Below, piece after piece: positions 21-62,897 of a DNA stretch of 64,000 bases (the first letter of the stretch is position 1; each line of letters begins with the position of its first letter). The notes under the pieces are model-generated. The model searched no databases. It saw only the letters and a program-made list of their open reading frames with translations, and had not been told where the DNA came from. The stretch lies in the sequence record OZ346212.1; one strand, written 5' to 3'. The DNA comes from a phage. A program made the position numbers and the translations under genes.

Positions 21-2444
21 ATGAGCATGTGGTCGTTCGACTTTGAGTCATCCGGTTTGCTGGAAGACCCAGATCTTTATTATCACTGCGGCCTGTTTAA
101 AGAGCTGAATAAGAACCGTTTTATGCTGTTCCTTCCTCTAAATGACCGCACACACTACTCCGAGGAGGATATAGAAAAGGCTAAGAACTTCATTCTGGCA
201 AAGAAAACTCTTTATAAAGATTTTGAAGTTCGCATAGCAGATTTTTCAGAGTTGGAAGGTTGGCTTACAGGAAATTCTGACTGGTCACCAACAGCTTTGA
301 ACTGCCATAACTGCTACAGTTATGACTTTATGCTGATGGAAAGATTATCTGGTATTCATTTTGATATGTTCCGTGATCCTAAGTGTATGGGGACTATCAA
401 CGATCACCAGGTTAACCTGTTTGATACGTTGGCGATGAGCCGAATCTTGTGGCCTGATCGCCCTTTACCAAAAGGTTGTCCGGACTCTGTATTCAACCCG
501 GTTACTAAGAAAATGCAGCCTGTTGGTCCTCACGGCCTTATGGCATGGGGCTACGCCCTTGGTAACCAGAAAGTTCAAATTGATGACTGGCGCGATCTTC
601 CGTTATGGAAGTATGTGGATCGTGTATTTGAGGACGTTATCATCCAGGAGCTGCTCTGGAAAGAGCTGGTAGCGGAATCAAAAGGTGTATTCTACGGCAA
701 ATCTGACATGCAGAACTTTATGTACGATCCTGCCAAAGAGAAGCCGAAAGGGTTCAAGAAGATCACCTGGAAGAACGCATTACGTCGAGGCATGTTGCAG
801 CACTTCCTGATGGAGCTGCAGGCCCGTCAGGGTGTATACTTCGACATAGATGGGGCTATTGCTTTACGTGACCGCTGCGATGCGTGGATGAAAGAGATCG
901 CTGATCGTGTTGAACCACAACTGCCTTTAAAAGAGCTGTCAATGTCTCAGCGGCCCAAGTTCCCTGAAAAGCCGTTTAACCAAGATGGGACAATCTCTAA
1001 TAATGGTTGGAAATGGTTAAAAGATAAGCTTGGCTATCCTGTGGACATGAGTGCTTTAGAGTTCAAAGCCCCACCTAAGCGAGCATTTACCTCTACAGGA
1101 GATGTCAGTAAGATGGGGATAAAATGGTGTGAAGAGATGGGCTGCAAAGACCACGATAAGATGGCTGATTTCTTGAGAGGTTATATTAAGGGCACCTCCA
1201 CACCACAACCTTTACCTAAAGAGCTGATGGATCAGGCAATAAGCGATCTGCAACAGAAGCGAATGCCTGACTGCAAGATACCTATGAAAATCAGCAATCA
1301 GGACGACATTAAGCGATACCTGATCAGTGCTGGTTGGCTTCCGACAATGTGGAGAACTAAGGATGTAACTAAGGACAGCAAGAAGAAAGCTCTACCTGAT
1401 GCAGATGTTGATGCACGAGTATATGCATACATGGACGAGCTTTTAGAGTCAGAGTATTGTGACCTAATTATCAACTTCTGGAACAAAACTGATGCTAAGT
1501 TTCAGACAACAGTGCACAAGTTCCGAAGCTTTCCTAACTCCGAAAGGATTAAAAAGGAAGTGTTCGGGAAAATACGCAGAAAAGCCAGGGCACTTATTAC
1601 TTCTCCGCAACTGAAAGATACGTTTGGACACCTATGTCCGAATCTTGAAAAATTGAACGGAGAGATGGCTAAAGATATCGTCTTGTGGTTATCATTGCGA
1701 AACCGCAGATCGGTCCTTGATCCAATCAAGGAGGATAAGGTTGATACTGGTCTTCTTAATCACCCACGTTTGAAGATTGACCATAAGCTTCCTGCTAAAA
1801 GCTCTGGATTAACAAACACTTCCCGACAGAAACACAGTATTTGTGCAAACATGCCTAAACCATCTCCTAAAGTGGTTATGGGTAAAGAGATGCGTAGCTT
1901 GTGGGGTGTTCCTCCTGGATACTTTGAGATCGGTATTGACGGGTCCAACTTAGAGCAGCTTATCGGGGCTTGGGGTGCCTTTGAGTTCGACAACGGCTTG
2001 TACTATGATGTTGTAAGTAACGGGGACGCACACCAAAACAATGCTGAGGCATATACAAAAGTAGCAGGCAGAGAGGTGTCTCGTAACGACGGTAAACCTA
2101 TCACGTATGGGGTTATGTACGGGGCACAAAAAGATAAAGTTGCAGATATGCTGGATATCTCCCCAGAGTTGGGGCAAAGGGTGATCGATGCACTTTGGGA
2201 TGCCAACCCAGGTCTTAAGGGGCGCAAAGAGGATCTGGAGAAATTCTGGGAAGCAACAGGTAAGAAGTTTATCTACTCTTTTGATGGTCATGCTATCTGG
2301 ACCCGATCTAAACACTCTTTACTTAATGCATACCAACAAAATGGCGGCGCATCGTTGTGTGACTTAGTTGGGATACTCATGCACCATCAAATGGTGAAGC
2401 GTGGGTGGTACGATGAAGGTGTTCGTCGTATTATCTATTACCAT
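21..2444 (+). CDS. DNA polymerase, family A (T7 gp5-like), exon 1: 3'-5' exonuclease domain plus polymerase motifs A and B
   Basis: AAGGAG SD then ATG 21; N-terminus SFDFESSGLL...YHCGLF resembles T7 DNAP Exo I; motif A-like IDGSNLEQL and motif B-like RNDGKPITYGVMYG; frame closes one codon after ...RRIIYYH, exactly where motif C (HDE) is expected. Confidence 0.8.
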
Positions 2445-3286
2445 AAATAACATTGTGGCTTCGTGCAGTGATGCACGTCGAAAACCTCTTTAATTGACGG
2501 GAAGGCTAAGTTGACTTTTACACCTAAACATGGTAAAAGCTCAATATGCTAATCCGCAGCGAAGACTAAAGGGGTGTAGTTAAAATGGCTAGATCAGTTG
2601 AGTATCACGGATATACCGTGTTTGATGATGGAACAATACCTTTATCGAAACGTGATCATACAACAATGTTTTGTTTTGATAATGGTCGAGGTTACCTTTG
2701 CGTAACCATGTTCATCGAGGGGAAGCAGTGCACAAAAGGTGTCCACCACTTGGTTGCTGAATGCTTTGTATCAAACCCTGATCCTGAAAGGCTCACATGG
2801 GTGAACCATAAGGACGGAAACAAATACAACAATGCATACTGGAACCTTGAATGGACCACCCCTGGTGGAAATATCAAACACGCTTATGATAATGACCTCA
2901 GAGTAAGGCCAGTCGGTGAGTATAATGCCAACGCTGTACTGACCGAGGATGAGGTAACGGAGATTTGCGAACTGTTACAAAGTGGTTTACGACAATGCGA
3001 GATTAGGGATCTTGGGTATCCTTATGAGACGGTCAGAGCCATAAAGCAAAGAAGACAGTGGAAACATATCTCTAAAAACTACACCTGGTAGTAACGTTCA
3101 GAGACTATCGAAAGCATAGCGCCAACATAAATTGGTGCGAAGAAGCGAGTAGAGTAGACCAGCAAGTGCGGTCGAAATGGGAGGTGCCTTGGTAACAAGG
3201 TAGTGAGATAGTCCGATCCATACAGGAAACTGTATGGCTGTGCACGTAATGGTGCGGGGTAGCTTAACGACCTACCTGAACTATTG
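2445..3286 (+). mobile_element. putative group I self-splicing intron in the DNA polymerase gene (boundaries approximate)
   Basis: Last exon-1 nt is U, last insert nt is G; joining 2444|3287 restores ...YYH|DEYQLQV (motif C); insert carries a free-standing HNH ORF flanked by 140 nt and 195 nt of non-coding sequence. Confidence 0.55.
2585..3091 (+). CDS. HNH homing endonuclease (intron-encoded)
   Basis: HNH signature HHLVAECF...VNHKDGNKYNNAYWNLEW; complete ORF lying inside the interrupted polymerase gene. Confidence 0.8.
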   Translation: MARSVEYHGYTVFDDGTIPLSKRDHTTMFCFDNGRGYLCVTMFIEGKQCTKGVHHLVAECFVSNPDPERLTWVNHKDGNKYNNAYWNLEWTTPGGNIKHAYDNDLRVRPVGEYNANAVLTEDEVTEICELLQSGLRQCEIRDLGYPYETVRAIKQRRQWKHISKNYTW

Positions 3287-3640
3287 GATGAGTACCAACT
3301 TCAAGTCCCTGACACACCGAAGTATAAGACTGTGTACACCTTCGACACAATCGAAGAACTGGAAGCATTTAAGGCAGAGCAGGAGGCCAAACTTCATGTG
3401 TTCGACGGTCATAAGTACAAAAAGGCACGCAAGGATGAGGACGGAAACGAAGTGGTTGACAGAGACGGAAACACGGTGTACGATCCTATCCTGAACGATG
3501 ACGGAAAGCTTGAACTTATCTGGAGCCCTGTGGGTGAAATGGTGGTGCATTGCTTCTGGCAAGCTTCTAAAATGATGGGCGTCCCGTTCCAGATCACGGG
3601 TGAATACCTGTGTGGTCGTAATTGGGGTGATTGTCACTAA
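3287..3640 (+). CDS. DNA polymerase exon 2 (motif C to C-terminus)
   Basis: Frame reads DEYQLQV... supplying the missing HDE; C-terminus ...GEYLCGRNWGDCH parallels the T7 DNAP C-terminus ...GKMGPNWAICH. Confidence 0.7.
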   Translation, partial: DEYQLQVPDTPKYKTVYTFDTIEELEAFKAEQEAKLHVFDGHKYKKARKDEDGNEVVDRDGNTVYDPILNDDGKLELIWSPVGEMVVHCFWQASKMMGVPFQITGEYLCGRNWGDCH

Positions 3641-3689
3641 TGTAAACTATCAACACATGGAAGTGTTGTTGAGCAAAGAGGAGACTTTT

Positions 3690-3974
3690 ATGGTAGTAGA
3701 ACCAACAAAAACATTTACATCCATGACTATCCCTGTTATTATGCAGGTGGAGTGTGTTCAGGTATCTCAAGTGTGGCCTGGCACCAAAATCCCGACAGGG
3801 CCTGATTTCTTTCAGGTTGGCAAAGTGTACAATGTCTGGAAGGCACCAGATTGTTACCCTTTCATCAAAGATGACCGTGGGATGCTGTGGTATCTTGGAA
3901 ATGATTTGACACTGCACCTTGGGAATGCTATTATTGCAGTATTCAGACTTAACAAGAAGGAGACTGATCAATGA
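3690..3974 (+). CDS. hypothetical protein
   Basis: ATG 3690 preceded by AAGAGGAG; longer track ORF (from 3600) would overlap the polymerase 3' end. Confidence 0.5.
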   Translation: MVVEPTKTFTSMTIPVIMQVECVQVSQVWPGTKIPTGPDFFQVGKVYNVWKAPDCYPFIKDDRGMLWYLGNDLTLHLGNAIIAVFRLNKKETDQ

Positions 3975-36263: not shown

Positions 36264-37532
36264 TCAGCAACCACAACTTCCGTAGTGCTTAACTCGCTCG
36301 ATAACTTCCGCTTGCTTACCTTTATTGTAAGGACGGGAGTTAGGACTGGAAAGGTATCCAGACACACGTCGAATTACACTGATCGTTCCCTCTTCATGGT
36401 TTCCACACTCTGGGCATACAAAGCCTTTAGCTGTTGCACTGAACTCACCAGAGAAACCACACTTGAGACATTTATCCACAGGTTGGTTAATACCAAAATA
36501 CATAATGTGTTTATACCCGAAGTCAACAAGAGCCTCTAAAGCATCCAGGTTGTTTTTCAGGTTAGGTGTTTCTACGTATCCGATGTTGCCACCAGAGGAT
36601 ATCATAGCAAAACCTTCTTCATACTCCCACTTATCAAAAGGAGAGCTATTGATCCATACTGGCTGATGGAAACTGTTGGTGAGATATTCATGCTCGTGCT
36701 TCAACACTTCAGGATATTCACGATCCAGACAGGTTGCAGCTTTATAGCATAGACTCTCAGAAGGGGTGCCGTACAAACTAAACGCTAGTCTACTTTTCTT
36801 CTTGTATCGCTCACAAGCATCTCTCATGTGCTGAAGTATTCCAAGAGCTAAAGCCTTGTCACCCTCTCTGCCCAAAATCTGACAGGTTTCATACACACCA
36901 ATATACCCAATACTGATGGAAGCGTACCCGTCATAGAAGAGTTTATCAATACTCTCTTCAGGATCCAGGCGAGCAAGAGCGCCTTCACACCACATGATAG
37001 GGTTCTGCCCTGCCTTAGTGCCTTTCAGACGGTTAACCCTTACAAGGTGAGCTTCATATGCCAAATCCAGATACTCGTCAAGAACGGAAAAGAAATCAAC
37101 ACCTTCCGTCTTAGCTTTTGCCGCAATCATTGGCAGGTTAAGACTAACAACACCCAAGTTGAATCTGCCGAGGTATTTCTCCTCACCTGTTTCCAAGTCA
37201 TTGTATTTGCTAAGAAAACTCCGGCAACCCATGCTCGTTACTTTACCATCTGTCGAGCCTGTCACTTTACGATTTAGTGGAACAGAAACAAAGTCAGGAT
37301 AAATCCGCTCTGCAGAGCATTCCAGAGCTAATCGTTTCAAATCATAGTTAGGATCTCCAGGGTTCATGTTGACACCCTCTTCTAGGAAGAACAACACTTT
37401 AGGGAACACAGGTGTGATACGTTCTTCACCAAGACCCATTTTGTGGACTTTCAAGTAGTTTTTGGTAATCATTCTACCAAAGACTGAGGTGTCCAGACCT
37501 AAACTTAATGTGATGAATGGAGTCTGCTGTCT
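36264..37532 (-). CDS. nrdD: anaerobic ribonucleoside-triphosphate reductase, exon 2 (glycyl-radical half)
   Basis: In-frame upstream extension RQQTPFITLSLGLDTS...; MGCRSFL active-site Cys, RRVSGYL glycyl-radical motif, C-terminal CxxC...CxxC. Confidence 0.75.
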   Translation of the reverse strand, partial: RQQTPFITLSLGLDTSVFGRMITKNYLKVHKMGLGEERITPVFPKVLFFLEEGVNMNPGDPNYDLKRLALECSAERIYPDFVSVPLNRKVTGSTDGKVTSMGCRSFLSKYNDLETGEEKYLGRFNLGVVSLNLPMIAAKAKTEGVDFFSVLDEYLDLAYEAHLVRVNRLKGTKAGQNPIMWCEGALARLDPEESIDKLFYDGYASISIGYIGVYETCQILGREGDKALALGILQHMRDACERYKKKSRLAFSLYGTPSESLCYKAATCLDREYPEVLKHEHEYLTNSFHQPVWINSSPFDKWEYEEGFAMISSGGNIGYVETPNLKNNLDALEALVDFGYKHIMYFGINQPVDKCLKCGFSGEFSATAKGFVCPECGNHEEGTISVIRRVSGYLSSPNSRPYNKGKQAEVIERVKHYGSCGC

Positions 37533-38332
37533 CCTCCCTGTGTTTCCACAGGGCCAGACTATCTCTTACTCTACTTCAATAAGATAATAACCCTTTATTG
37601 TGAGATGCTTACCTTCGGCATTTCCTTCGATAGCCCTATGAACGTTACCTACGTTCAAATTTAAGGCTTTTGCACAGGCATAGAGTGAAGGATATTCACC
37701 CACCAAGGTTTTACCTTTGTATGCCTGCACTTTCCTATAGCACTTACCTGGACAAAGTCCTGTTCGGAAAGCATGTCTCTTATTATCTTCCGGCAAAACC
37801 CACTCTAGGTTAGACGGATGATCATTCAATGTATTGCCATCTTTATGATTCACTTCCCAGTTTTCAGGGTCTTCTGGGACATCCGGCAAACAATACAAGG
37901 CAACAATCCTTGAGGTTTGGATTCGAATCTTTTTACCTTTGTGGTTGAAAGAGTACATATAACGGCGTTTAACATGCTTGTTACCTTTTCCATAACCTCC
38001 CCACAATATTGGGTGTAGCATTCCACGTTTTCCGTATACGTTTCCAACCTCATCAATCACATAGTTTGATTCTTCACCATTAAGAATGATCTTTTTCATA
38101 GAGCCTCTCCATTTCGAAGTTAGTATTTCAACTAACCCCTACACTACTTGGTTCAGAAATGTTTGTCAAGCATTTCTGCCTTTCGTTAGTCGTTACAACC
38201 GTTCCAACTCCTGTAAGAACTAGTCACGGGATTGGCATAGCTTTCGCCTTAGCGTTCCCCGTTAGCCGGATTTACCGACCCCTCTTATGAGGTTAGGAGA
38301 GTTTTACAACGGCCAGTTTGTTAACCGTTGAC
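37533..38332 (-). mobile_element. putative group I intron (T4-like core) in nrdD, HNH ORF in 3' region (boundaries approximate)
   Basis: 5' portion contains CUAACGGGGAAC...CAAUCCCGUG, matching the T4 td intron core AAACGGGGAAC...CAAUCCCGUG; exon 1 ends in U, insert ends in G; splice restores INTLTS|RQQTPF. Confidence 0.6.
37566..38099 (-). CDS. HNH homing endonuclease (intron-encoded)
   Basis: WEVNHKDGNTLNDHPSNLEW HNH signature; lies between the two nrdD halves. Confidence 0.8.
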   Translation of the reverse strand: MKKIILNGEESNYVIDEVGNVYGKRGMLHPILWGGYGKGNKHVKRRYMYSFNHKGKKIRIQTSRIVALYCLPDVPEDPENWEVNHKDGNTLNDHPSNLEWVLPEDNKRHAFRTGLCPGKCYRKVQAYKGKTLVGEYPSLYACAKALNLNVGNVHRAIEGNAEGKHLTIKGYYLIEVE

Positions 38333-39184
38333 AGAAGTTAACGTGTTGATTTGATAGAGCAAAGTCTGCATGCTGTCAAATACGTCTTTATCTGTCATTT
38401 GCATTGCAACAGTTTCAGCATCCGGCAACCAATGTTCCTGGCAAAATTTAAGGTTCTTCTCATAGGTTGCTTCAGCATACTGTGCCAGATAATGATCAAT
38501 ATGGCTCATAGTCTGACCACCATATTGAGCACTAGCTACCGCACTAGAGATTTGGCTAAGGATTGTTGTTGCAACCCCTATTGACTTCGGCTTACTGACA
38601 TGGGCGTTACCAATGTTGAATCCGTTTTCCAACATATCTGGATAATTTACCAAACAACAGTTTGTTAACGGACTGATCAAGTAGTCAAGATCATGCACAT
38701 GGATGAATCCTTTATTGTGCTCTTCGGAGACACGGTCTGGCAGGATCTGTGTTGATGCAAGGTGTTTGCTAAGAATACCTGCAAGCAGGTCGCGATGAGT
38801 GTGTACATGATTAGTAGGCTTATTTGCGTTTTCTTTTGTAAATTCATCACAAGTTCGATCCAAGAAGCCACTAATATCTGCAAGCAGTTTTCCACCTGCC
38901 TCTCTGTTATTATCTCTTGTCTGTCTATACTGGATGTATTCTCTGGCTGCACATTTTAAACCCATATCCATAAGAGCATCTTCAACAAGGATATGGATAT
39001 TTTTTACAGAGATCGTGCACTGGTCGGTTGGTAGATTGTTAGCAACAACTTCATTAACCGCGCAGGCGATCCGGTAAGCTTCTTCTTCAGTATGTCCAGA
39101 CTCAAGTAAGGCGGACTCTGCCGCCTTGATCACCTTAATTCCGTTATAGAACTCTTCTCTACCGTCCCGTTTTACAACTTTCAC
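38333..39184 (-). CDS. nrdD: anaerobic ribonucleoside-triphosphate reductase, exon 1 (ATP-cone and N-terminal half)
   Basis: MKVVKRDGREEFYNGIKV ATP-cone start; ends ...LYQINTLTS just before the intron. Confidence 0.75.
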
Positions 39185-62084: not shown

Positions 62085-62159
62085 GCCCTGTTAGCTTAGT
62101 GGATAAAGCAGCGGCCTTCTAAGCCGTTGACACTGGTTCGAGTCCAGTACGGGGTGCCA
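62085..62159 (+). tRNA. tRNA-Arg (anticodon UCU)
   Basis: Hand-folded cloverleaf: acceptor GCCCTGT/ACGGGGT, anticodon loop CTTCTAA, T-loop TTCGAGT, encoded CCA. Confidence 0.8.
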
Positions 62160-62163
62160 AATT

Positions 62164-62250
62164 GGGGAGTTATCCCGTAGAGGTAGCGGTGTAGACTGTA
62201 AATCTATTGTCATTGCGACTCGGGTGGTTCGACTCCACCACTCCCCACCA
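62164..62250 (+). tRNA. tRNA-Tyr (anticodon GUA), long variable arm
   Basis: Acceptor GGGGAGT/ACTCCCC, anticodon loop CTGTAAA, T-loop TTCGACT, CCA; overall like E. coli tRNA-Tyr. Confidence 0.8.
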
Positions 62251-62364
62251 AATTTATATTTTTAGATGCATAAATAATACAGATAATGGCATTGATATTT
62301 ATCGTCGTTTATACTAGTCACTAACTGCTCGAAAATCAGTGTCATTATCAGTATTATTTATAAA

Positions 62365-62455
62365 GGAGGGTAGGGAGCAATGGTGCTCAATCGGTCTTGA
62401 AAACCGTCCCGTTGAGGATGACTCGATGATGGTTCGATTCCATTACTCTCCGCCA
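62365..62455 (+). tRNA. tRNA-Ser (anticodon UGA), long variable arm
   Basis: Acceptor GGAGGGT/ACTCTCC, anticodon loop CTTGAAA, 20-nt variable arm, T-loop TTCGATT, CCA. Confidence 0.75.
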
Positions 62456-62553
62456 CATTGTTGACCTTGTAATTAAGCGAAAGTCGGAAGCAGAACCGGA
62501 TTATCAAATGTTACAGTCGTCATCGCCGACTAGCAACATGGTCAACATACTGA

Positions 62554-62650
62554 GCTAGGTAAGCCCTTTGGCAAGGGCGAGGATTTTTAATCCTGAAAAT
62601 AGACGAGGTAGTCGTTGAATACATAGGTGGTTCGATTCCATCACCTAGCA
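62554..62650 (+). tRNA. atypical 97-nt tRNA-like gene (possibly Lys-UUU with about 29-nt variable region) or pseudo-tRNA
   Basis: Perfect acceptor GCTAGGT/ACCTAGC, D-arm GCCC...GGGC, hairpin with loop TTTTTAA, extra hairpin ACGA-ggtag-TCGT, T-arm GGTGG-TTCGATT-CCATC; no encoded CCA. Confidence 0.35.
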
Positions 62651-62657
62651 CCTTTTT

Positions 62658-62733
62658 GCTGATGTAGCACAATCGGTAGTGCAATTGATTTGTAATCAAT
62701 AGGTTGTAGGTTCAAGTCCTGCCATCAGCACCA
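62658..62733 (+). tRNA. tRNA-Thr (anticodon UGU)
   Basis: Acceptor GCTGATG/CATCAGC, anticodon stem ATTGA/TCAAT with loop TTTGTAA, T-loop TTCAAGT, CCA. Confidence 0.85.
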
Positions 62734-62734
62734 A

Positions 62735-62809
62735 GGCCCTGTAGCTGGAAGGTTCAAGCAAGCGACTCATAATCGCCAGACGGTGGTTCAATTCCACCCA
62801 GGGCCACCA
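62735..62809 (+). tRNA. tRNA-Met or Ile2 (anticodon CAU), elongator type
   Basis: Acceptor GGCCCTG/CAGGGCC fully paired (not initiator-like), anticodon loop CTCATAA, T-loop TTCAATT, CCA. Confidence 0.75.
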
Positions 62810-62820
62810 AATAGTAAATA

Positions 62821-62897
62821 CTCCGCGTAGCTCAGCTTGGTAGAGCGCCTGATTTGGGATCAGGAGGTCGAGTGTTCGAATCACTCCGTGGAGACCA
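62821..62897 (+). tRNA. tRNA-Pro (anticodon UGG)
   Basis: Acceptor CTCCGCG/CGTGGAG, D-arm GCTC...GAGC, anticodon stem CCTGA/TCAGG with loop TTTGGGA, T-loop TTCGAAT, CCA. Confidence 0.85.

Follow-up and report, generated by a model that had tools for sequence, protein, structure and literature searches.

A probable group I intron bearing an HNH endonuclease gene splits the DNA polymerase gene of an rV5-like coliphage within motif C

The 64,000-nt stretch of phage DNA studied here (record OZ346212.1, the window from now on) carries close to its start a family A DNA polymerase gene whose coding sequence is interrupted by an insert of 842 nt (2445..3286, plus strand, like all the features of this gene given below). 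We conclude with high confidence that this insert is a splicing group I intron residing in the polymerase gene of a Vequintavirus (rV5-like) coliphage, a reading based on the Rfam family RF00028, on covariation, on natural intron-less alleles and on the joined coding sequence (CDS) annotated in phage AlexBoehm. By alignment, the polymerase is split between the His and the metal-binding Asp-Glu of the family A motif C (H/DE; a slash marks the insertion point throughout), a site that corresponds to H653/D654 of T7 gp5 and to H881/D882 of Escherichia coli Pol I. For the latter enzyme we take the HDE of motif C to be H881-D882-E883 in the numbering of the Klenow fragment, which would make site 881 the H/DE junction. 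An intron at this place of a phage polymerase is already known and annotated, and the one in the window is a typical member of a well-known class.

The two halves of the gene had been spotted in an earlier note made from the letters of the window, which described an 809-codon open reading frame (ORF) ending as RRIIYYHK and a second frame beginning DEYQLQV at 3287, and both lie where that note had put them. The first ORF (21..2450) closes with a TAA stop at 2448-2450, four bases into the insert, and its last sense codon (AAA, Lys) together with this stop makes up nucleotides 1-6 of the intron; the count of 809 codons is therefore right for the ORF, but exon 1 itself has 808 residues. This exon (21..2444) comprises the exonuclease domain as well as motifs A and B of the polymerase, and ends at the His of motif C. 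The downstream ORF (3284..3640) opens TTG-GAT-GAG, translated as (M)DEYQLQV, and finishes as GRNWGDCH with its stop at 3638-3640, so that exon 2 (3287..3640; 117 codons plus stop) opens with the Asp-Glu of motif C and has the C-terminal His as its last residue. Joining 2444 to 3287 gives RRIIYYHDEYQLQVP and recreates the IYYHDEYQLQVP of uninterrupted homologues, whereby the ligated exons would read UAUUACCAU/GAUGAGUAC at the RNA level and the conceptual spliced product would be an enzyme of 925 residues with a whole HDE motif.

Comparisons at the protein level agree with this junction. Four related phages (Ro1, CR3, ICP1 and F94) encode the polymerase as one uninterrupted ORF, colinear with the spliced product in the alignment and showing IYYHDE(Y/I)Q(L/V/I) at the position of the split. 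T7 DNA polymerase chains from solved structures match with E=1.6e-13, with YYHDEYQL opposite WVHDEIQV, which places the split at H653/D654-E655, and with GIDGSNLE of motif A aligned to T7 GIDASGLE (D475). Exon 2 matches PHROG 8888 (DNA polymerase; E=4.5e-58) over profile positions 186-295 of 295, and the Pfam DNA_pol_A match grows from profile positions 137-261 with exon 1 alone to 137-348 once spliced, crossing the junction, with scores of 27.9 and 31.8 bits, respectively, both under the cut-off of 34.3. Moreover, the intron-less phage C15 matches the exon 1 protein with 100% identity. The DNA of near-identical intron-less phages such as rV5_ev147 shows TATTACCAT/GATGAGTACCAAC, that is, the two flanks of the window abutted exactly, and intron-less Vequintavirus alleles read TACCAT/GATGAGTACCAA, which is compatible with no other (shifted) junction. 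Uninterrupted homologues and intron-less alleles thus coincide in the joining that had been proposed. As for the location within "catalytic triad codons", the insertion does fall in motif C, but the word triad was loose, since what the insert separates is the His from the metal-binding Asp-Glu. Exon 1 alone lacks this Asp-Glu as well as the conserved C-terminal His, and splicing would for this reason be obligatory for replication.

The RNA architecture of the insert was examined in an alignment of 12 introns inserted at the same site in seven phage groups (Vequintavirus, Avunavirus, Seunavirus, the unclassified LTH01, Aeromonas phage phiA009, Vibrio phage 10AMN and Shewanella phage KASIA), after removal of their ORFs and with 9 nt of exon kept on either side. 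A P1 hairpin (2441..2458), found both in the Rfam alignment and by RNAalifold, is formed by the exon CCAU (2441-2444) and GUGG (2455-2458), where the pair at the 5′ splice site is U2444·G2455; this UG is present in 12/12 introns, and all four P1 pairs are invariant. The pairing strand belongs to an internal guide sequence, CAUUGUGG (2451-2458), whose other half, CAUU (2451-2454), can be read from the sequence as pairing with GAUG (3287-3290) of exon 2 in a P10 contiguous with the P1 part. The base preceding 2445 is a T and the last one of the insert, 3286, a G, as demanded by the rule of a U before and a G at the end that the earlier note had invoked. This terminal G (omega-G) is a G in 12/12 aligned introns, and the two bases ahead of it vary.

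Between both ends we find the elements of a complete group I core. The 5′ strand of P3 (2485..2490) pairs with 3179-3184, with 4/6 compensatory pairs and 100% of the alignment cells paired. It is followed by the P4-P5-P6 domain (2495..2561), made of P4 (2495-2501/2553-2558), P5 plus an extension, and the 5′ strand of P6 (2559-2561, with 3095-3097). The 3′ catalytic core (3101..3214) starts with the 5′ strand of P7 (3101-3107), continues with the P7.1 region, a conserved GUA and P7.2 (3157-3163/3168-3173), and is completed at 3179-3214 by the 3′ strand of P3 (3179-3184), P8 (3185-3191/3196-3202) and the 3′ strand of P7 (3209-3214). Downstream, the stretch 3218..3286 holds P9 (3218-3225/3230-3237), P9.1, P9.2 and the terminal G. 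About 70 nt separate the P7 5′ strand (3107) from the P3 3′ strand (3179), and in this interval P7.2 covaries, the P7.1 hairpin is of variable size, and a GUAG directly 5′ of P7.2 is invariant in 12/12 introns. As quoted in a published report (PMC3428280), subgroup IA2 is characterized by P7.1 and P7.2 lying between P7 and the P3 3′ strand and joined by a conserved G-U-A, and the P7.1/P7.2 architecture with the invariant GUA(G) of this intron fits that subgroup.

The Rfam group I covariance model RF00028 matches positions 2435-3236 with 39.2 bits (E=2.6e-8 locally, 1.8e-6 over the whole window), covering the full model (1-253) with a 510-nt insertion in P6. A scan of the whole window at Rfam gathering thresholds returned tRNAs only, and the intron is visible only in the E-value mode; the curated threshold of RF00028, 50 bits, is an operational limit and not a defining property of the family. 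Same-site copies without an ORF do pass this value: the ORF-less allele of phage JEP1, with 328 nt, a 14-nt hairpin replacing the ORF and a core 96.7% identical to that of the window, reaches 73.7 bits, and those of RudolfGeigy, 18-1-2, 10AMN and KASIA reach 64.7, 91.2, 71.5 and 69.4 bits, respectively. In the alignment, RNAalifold recovers P1, P2, P3, P4, P5, P6, P7.2, P8, P9, P9.1 and P9.2, to which the P7 pseudoknot was added by hand. Standard pairs fill 97.7% of the cells of this structure, pseudoknot included, compared with 32-42% when the partners are slid, and compensatory changes on both sides occur in 33/63 pairs (P3 4/6, P7 3/6, P2 6/7, P8 6/7, P9 5/7). None of 500 shuffles matched the observed values on four of the five covariation measures. 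Given the E-value over the whole window and this strong covariation, the observation lies beyond chance. Altogether, the P1 with its U·G pair, P10, the terminal G, the covariation of the P3-P9 core, P3/P7 pseudoknot included, and the ORF-less copies that exceed the Rfam threshold bear out the assignment of the insert to group I.

A different explanation for the same gene would be a non-spliced split, where two cistrons are translated independently, exon 2 from the TTG at 3284, and both polypeptides assemble into an active enzyme. There are precedents of this kind, such as the NrdA of Aeromonas phage Aeh1, split by mobE, and the CB7_245 intron, which does not splice (PMC7344957); the in-frame stop of exon 1, the in-frame TTG three bases before exon 2 and the two separate "DNA polymerase" CDSs found in many GenBank records would also suit it. 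A Shine-Dalgarno sequence was however looked for upstream of TTG 3284 and none was found, and the G of this TTG is the invariant terminal G of the intron, preceded by bases that vary. Moreover, the full ribozyme core persists, with many compensatory changes, in ORF-less versions of 253-328 nt, which indicates that the RNA structure is under selection, i.e., that it splices, and would otherwise be unexplained. The split would also part the His from the metal-binding Asp-Glu inside a single β-hairpin of the palm domain. In addition, the CB7_50 intron of the Certrevirus CB7, a phage of the same subfamily (Vequintavirinae), is inserted at the same site and splices in vivo, as found by reverse transcription-polymerase chain reaction (RT-PCR) and Sanger sequencing (PMC7344957). 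This intron has a homologous core and the same boundaries (TATTACCAT/AAGTAACATTGTGGC at the 5′ end, TTTTG/GATGAA at the 3′ end), and differs in its length (687 nt) and in its cargo, a 127-residue HNH protein with 38% identity to that of the window over 53 residues, restricted to the HNH motif; the Certrevirus polymerase gene, unlike the one in the window, also has a second intron upstream. With these data, we regard independent translation of exon 2 as very improbable, and a group I intron remains the preferred reading.

An assembly error or a dead, disrupted polymerase, for which only the interrupted reading frame could be adduced, has a practically negligible probability: the same architecture occurs in over 30 plaque-forming phages that were isolated independently, 1.5 kb around the insert are identical to AlexBoehm, and this is a core replication gene with both exons conserved, so that the comparative data in effect refute it. 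Two other candidates were discarded as well, an intein, given the in-frame TAA stop at 2448-2450 and an HNH ORF with its own start in a frame different from that of exon 1, and translational bypass or frameshift, given a gap of 842 nt that holds a structured, covarying ribozyme. A scan of 2300-3800 for promoters and terminators showed no excess over chance (4 sites resembling promoters, with 2.7 expected, and 0 terminators).

The ORF lodged in the intron (2585..3091; 168 codons plus stop) is looped out of P6a and encodes an HNH protein related to I-HmuI. It matches PHROG 59 (HNH endonuclease) with E=6.5e-38 and I-HmuI (PDB 1U3E) with E=4.4e-6 over residues 12-100, across the HNH motif, where VNHKDGNKYNNAYWNLEW...GGNI is aligned against VDHKDGNKDNNLSTNLRW...KINV; these matches uphold the notion of an HNH endonuclease encoded in the insert. 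The His, Asn and Asn of the window protein stand opposite the HNH motif of I-HmuI and are kept in eight orthologues. Orthologues with 46-71% identity reside in the same-site introns of Av-05, SSE121/K54, LTH01, phiA009 and the Pseudomonas phage SPA01. All eight are intact, full-length ORFs, and the ratio of non-synonymous to synonymous substitution rates (dN/dS) among the Vequintavirus copies is 0.07-0.15. With its orthologues intact, its motif kept and such low ratios, the HNH gene looks functional, under purifying selection and not decaying.

A second, more local structure seems to accommodate this gene within the ribozyme. The segment 2572..2581 pairs with 3077-3086, the last codons of the HNH ORF, in a helix of 10 bp found by duplex and mini-construct folding, and an equivalent helix of 9-11 bp between the region before the start codon and the 3′ end of the ORF occurs, with other sequences, in the introns of Av-05, LTH01, SSE121 and phiA009. 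The Shine-Dalgarno sequence of the HNH gene (AAAGGGG, 2568-2574) lies partly within this helix. The helix closes the ORF-bearing P6a loop, letting the core fold, and by partly burying the ribosome-binding site it would also restrain translation of the endonuclease from the precursor RNA.

The first 5 kb of the window are 93-97% identical to more than 100 Vequintavirus genomes, and no record is identical to the window overall (the best one over 25 kb is Murica, with 96.5%). Among 115 Vequintavirus records matching the junction region, the intron is polymorphic: about 54 are intron-less, 24 have an ORF-less intron of 276 nt, including the type phage V5/rV5, 4 have an ORF-less intron of 328 nt, and about 31-33 have the HNH intron. 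The closest relative is the AlexBoehm element (MZ501048, bas56_0073/0074), a separate isolate to which the window is 100% identical over 2259-3778 (1.5 kb around the intron), with flanks that differ by 2-13%. This tract of identity is consistent with a recent acquisition of the intron with co-converted exon flanks. Taken with the exon 1 protein shared with C15, it forms a mosaic of the sort expected from homing with co-conversion. The intron-less alleles come in two forms, GAT GAG TAC CAA, which equals the ligated exons (rV5_ev147 and MaxBurger, GATGAGTACCAA), and GAC GAA TAT CAG (C15 and nimi, GACGAATATCAG), the latter with four synonymous changes in the first 12 nt of exon 2 (equivalent to 3287-3298 of the window). 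All the intron-bearing alleles examined carry the GAT form; the GAC variant would break one pair of P10 and might represent an endonuclease-resistant target. Regarding the origin of these records, about 16 entries labelled "Campylobacter phage" (MG0656xx; C15, A147, D1 and others) share 95-100% identity with the genomes of Vequintavirus phages of E. coli, and that of C15 is flagged as UNVERIFIED, so the Campylobacter host label is doubtful.

By analogy with standard group I chemistry, the guide sequence in the precursor mRNA would pair with the CCAU that ends exon 1, and an external guanosine bound at P7 would attack after U2444. The guide would then position the GAUG of exon 2 through P10, so that the freed 3′-OH of exon 1 could attack after G3286, and the ligation of 2444 to 3287 would produce an mRNA for the 925-residue polymerase with an intact HDE. 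In the same way, on the model of I-HmuI and other phage intron endonucleases, the HNH enzyme would be expected to act on intron-less polymerase alleles in mixed infections, nicking or cutting them close to the insertion site, and recombinational repair would then transfer the intron, along with exon sequence on its flanks, to the recipient (homing). We hold the existence of an active homing endonuclease with less confidence than that of a splicing intron.

Some points weigh against this picture as a whole. The intron copy of the window stays under the Rfam gathering threshold (39.2 versus 50 bits), a shortfall explained by the penalty for the 510-nt ORF insertion, and splicing in this phage rests on structure, on comparison and on the Certrevirus experiment. 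For the protein, the Pfam HNH_3 score is 17.7 bits with a cut-off of 24.8, the AlphaFold2 single-sequence model is unusable (mean predicted local distance difference test score, pLDDT, of 35), and what is said of its endonuclease activity, of the strand and position of cutting and of homing is prediction. The tract shared with AlexBoehm, in turn, could stem from ordinary phage mosaicism and recombination.

In this regard, it could be argued that the intron splices and that the protein of its HNH gene has ceased to act in homing, the gene having entered the decay phase of the homing cycle or serving another role, such as maturase-like folding or competition between phages. The endonuclease gene is lost repeatedly, as shown by the 28 of the ~61 intron-bearing Vequintavirus records that are ORF-less, and the window protein has an Asn opposite a metal-binding residue of I-HmuI, which we take to be Asp74 in the numbering of the literature. 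This alternative is nevertheless unlikely in the light of the purifying selection on eight intact orthologues with the His/Asn/Asn motif. Moreover, the element is not fixed, with intron-less and presumably targetable alleles still frequent (~54/115), and endonuclease and intron travel together across distant phage groups.

Introns with the same boundaries occur in four genera of Vequintavirinae, in Aeromonas Plateaulakevirus and Pseudomonas Pakpunavirus, in a Vibrio myovirus and in the Shewanella siphovirus KASIA. The cargo changes among copies: most have an I-HmuI-like HNH gene in P6a, those of Certrevirus a different HNH gene, and that of PVP-SE1 a LAGLIDADG gene, placed in the P7.1 region. 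A degenerate 20-nt motif of the 5′ junction was found in 20 IMG/VR contigs, 16 of them after ...YH in a family A polymerase; four matches (L033, L035, L036 and L038), without polymerase context or a group I match, were set aside, about the number that chance would give for this pattern. As a tentative proposal, possible though not one we would favour at present, a single H/DE ribozyme lineage may have spread across unrelated phage groups exchanging its endonuclease cargo, with the GAC form acting as an "immune" allele, resistant to the endonuclease and incompatible with P10. If true, an arms race would be visible inside one catalytic motif.

Several known systems frame this intron. According to the report cited above, the T7-like phages ΦI and W31 have self-splicing IA2 introns with an HNH ORF in P6a at E. 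coli Pol I site 881 (PMC3428280). By that description they would share the site, the subgroup and the position of the ORF with the intron of the window, and they differ in being podoviruses with a T7-type polymerase. The introns of SPO1, SP82 and Bastille, which encode the nicking HNH endonucleases I-HmuI, I-HmuII and I-BasI, are also group I introns of phage family A polymerases, and I-HmuI is homologous to the HNH protein of the window, but they are inserted in the fingers/motif region and not in motif C, and they belong to phages of Gram-positive bacteria. That report locates these introns and that of Pf-WMP3 at Pol I site 674, and that of phiL7 at 676 (PMC3428280). The IA2 introns of T4 (td, nrdB and nrdD, or sunY) resemble that of the window in the small IA-type core, the ORF in a peripheral loop and the pairing of the ribosome-binding site within the intron; they occupy other genes, carry endonucleases of the GIY-YIG I-TevI/II families, and their sequence relation is limited to the group I core.

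Other insertions were encountered in polymerase genes along the way. A 43-kb coliphage contig (OR844702) considered as a T7-like case of the same site was rejected because its intron sits elsewhere, after ...TGRLSASNP; it is an HNH-bearing group I intron (2350-3036; RF00028, 51 bits) in a family A polymerase, near the SPO1/Pf-WMP3-type site. Further group I introns at other positions of the polymerase gene are present in Avunavirus 18-1-2, Av-05, the Certreviruses phiTE and CB7, and two IMG/VR contigs, with additional RF00028 matches of 35-47 bits (L018, 259-462; L034, 9560-9811; L037, 1211-1513; upstream exon boundaries in L014 and L016). The polymerase gene of the phage Mangalyan has a 969-nt in-frame insertion after residue 671 (~2534-3502), within ...SNGDAH/QNNAE, and that of JEP1 shows the same difference in length. 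The Mangalyan insertion starts CYSGDTQIL, gives a weak Hint_2 match (E=7e-5, under the cut-off) and has a non-canonical C-terminal end (..VAVCGN/Q), and is probably an intein.

Elsewhere in the window, another gene, nrdD for the anaerobic ribonucleotide reductase, is likewise divided (36264-39184, minus strand) into an N-terminal part with ATP-cone and NRDD (38321-39184) and a C-terminal part with NRDD and glycine radical (36264-37472). A 177-codon HNH gene lies between both (37566-38099), with a sub-threshold RF00028 match at 37536-37823 (27.8 bits, E=5.8e-5 locally), and we take the insert for a probable second group I intron with an endonuclease gene. A cluster of seven tRNAs (Arg-TCT, Tyr, Ser, Thr, Met and Pro) occupies 62085-62897, where a 99-nt tRNA call (62554-62652), with a four-base anticodon according to ARAGORN and an Rfam tRNA score of 35.5 bits, may carry an insertion or represent a pseudo-tRNA.

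In the GenBank record of AlexBoehm, bas56_0073 is a CDS joined from two pieces, which span the equivalent of 21..3640 and enclose the gene for a "putative homing endonuclease". Same-site 276-nt ORF-less versions are annotated as interrupted by an intron in LL12 (MH491969, CPT_LL12_212, with the note "intron-interrupted gene") and RudolfGeigy, the latter as a joined CDS like that of KASIA. V5 has this version too (DQ832317, 126785-127060), listed there as "hypothetical protein" (twice) and "DNA polymerase", and many other records divide the polymerase into two CDSs or label its pieces as hypothetical. Reviews mention polymerases, ribonucleotide reductases and terminases as targets of phage introns (PMC3984707). 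The rV5 genome paper of 2013 mentioned introns in the terminase gene only and described a polymerase of 775 aa (PMC3606486), and we found no published description of the polymerase intron in Vequintavirus. For annotation, the correct product would be a single spliced enzyme of 925 residues, and not two fragments or hypothetical proteins. We see here a textbook case of a group I intron bearing a homing endonuclease at the most conserved codons of an essential phage gene, which changes no open question in the field. Closely related coliphages that can be cultured hold a natural series of its alleles (two intron-less forms, two ORF-less forms and the one with the endonuclease), which would make a convenient system for homing, intron loss and target-site immunity.

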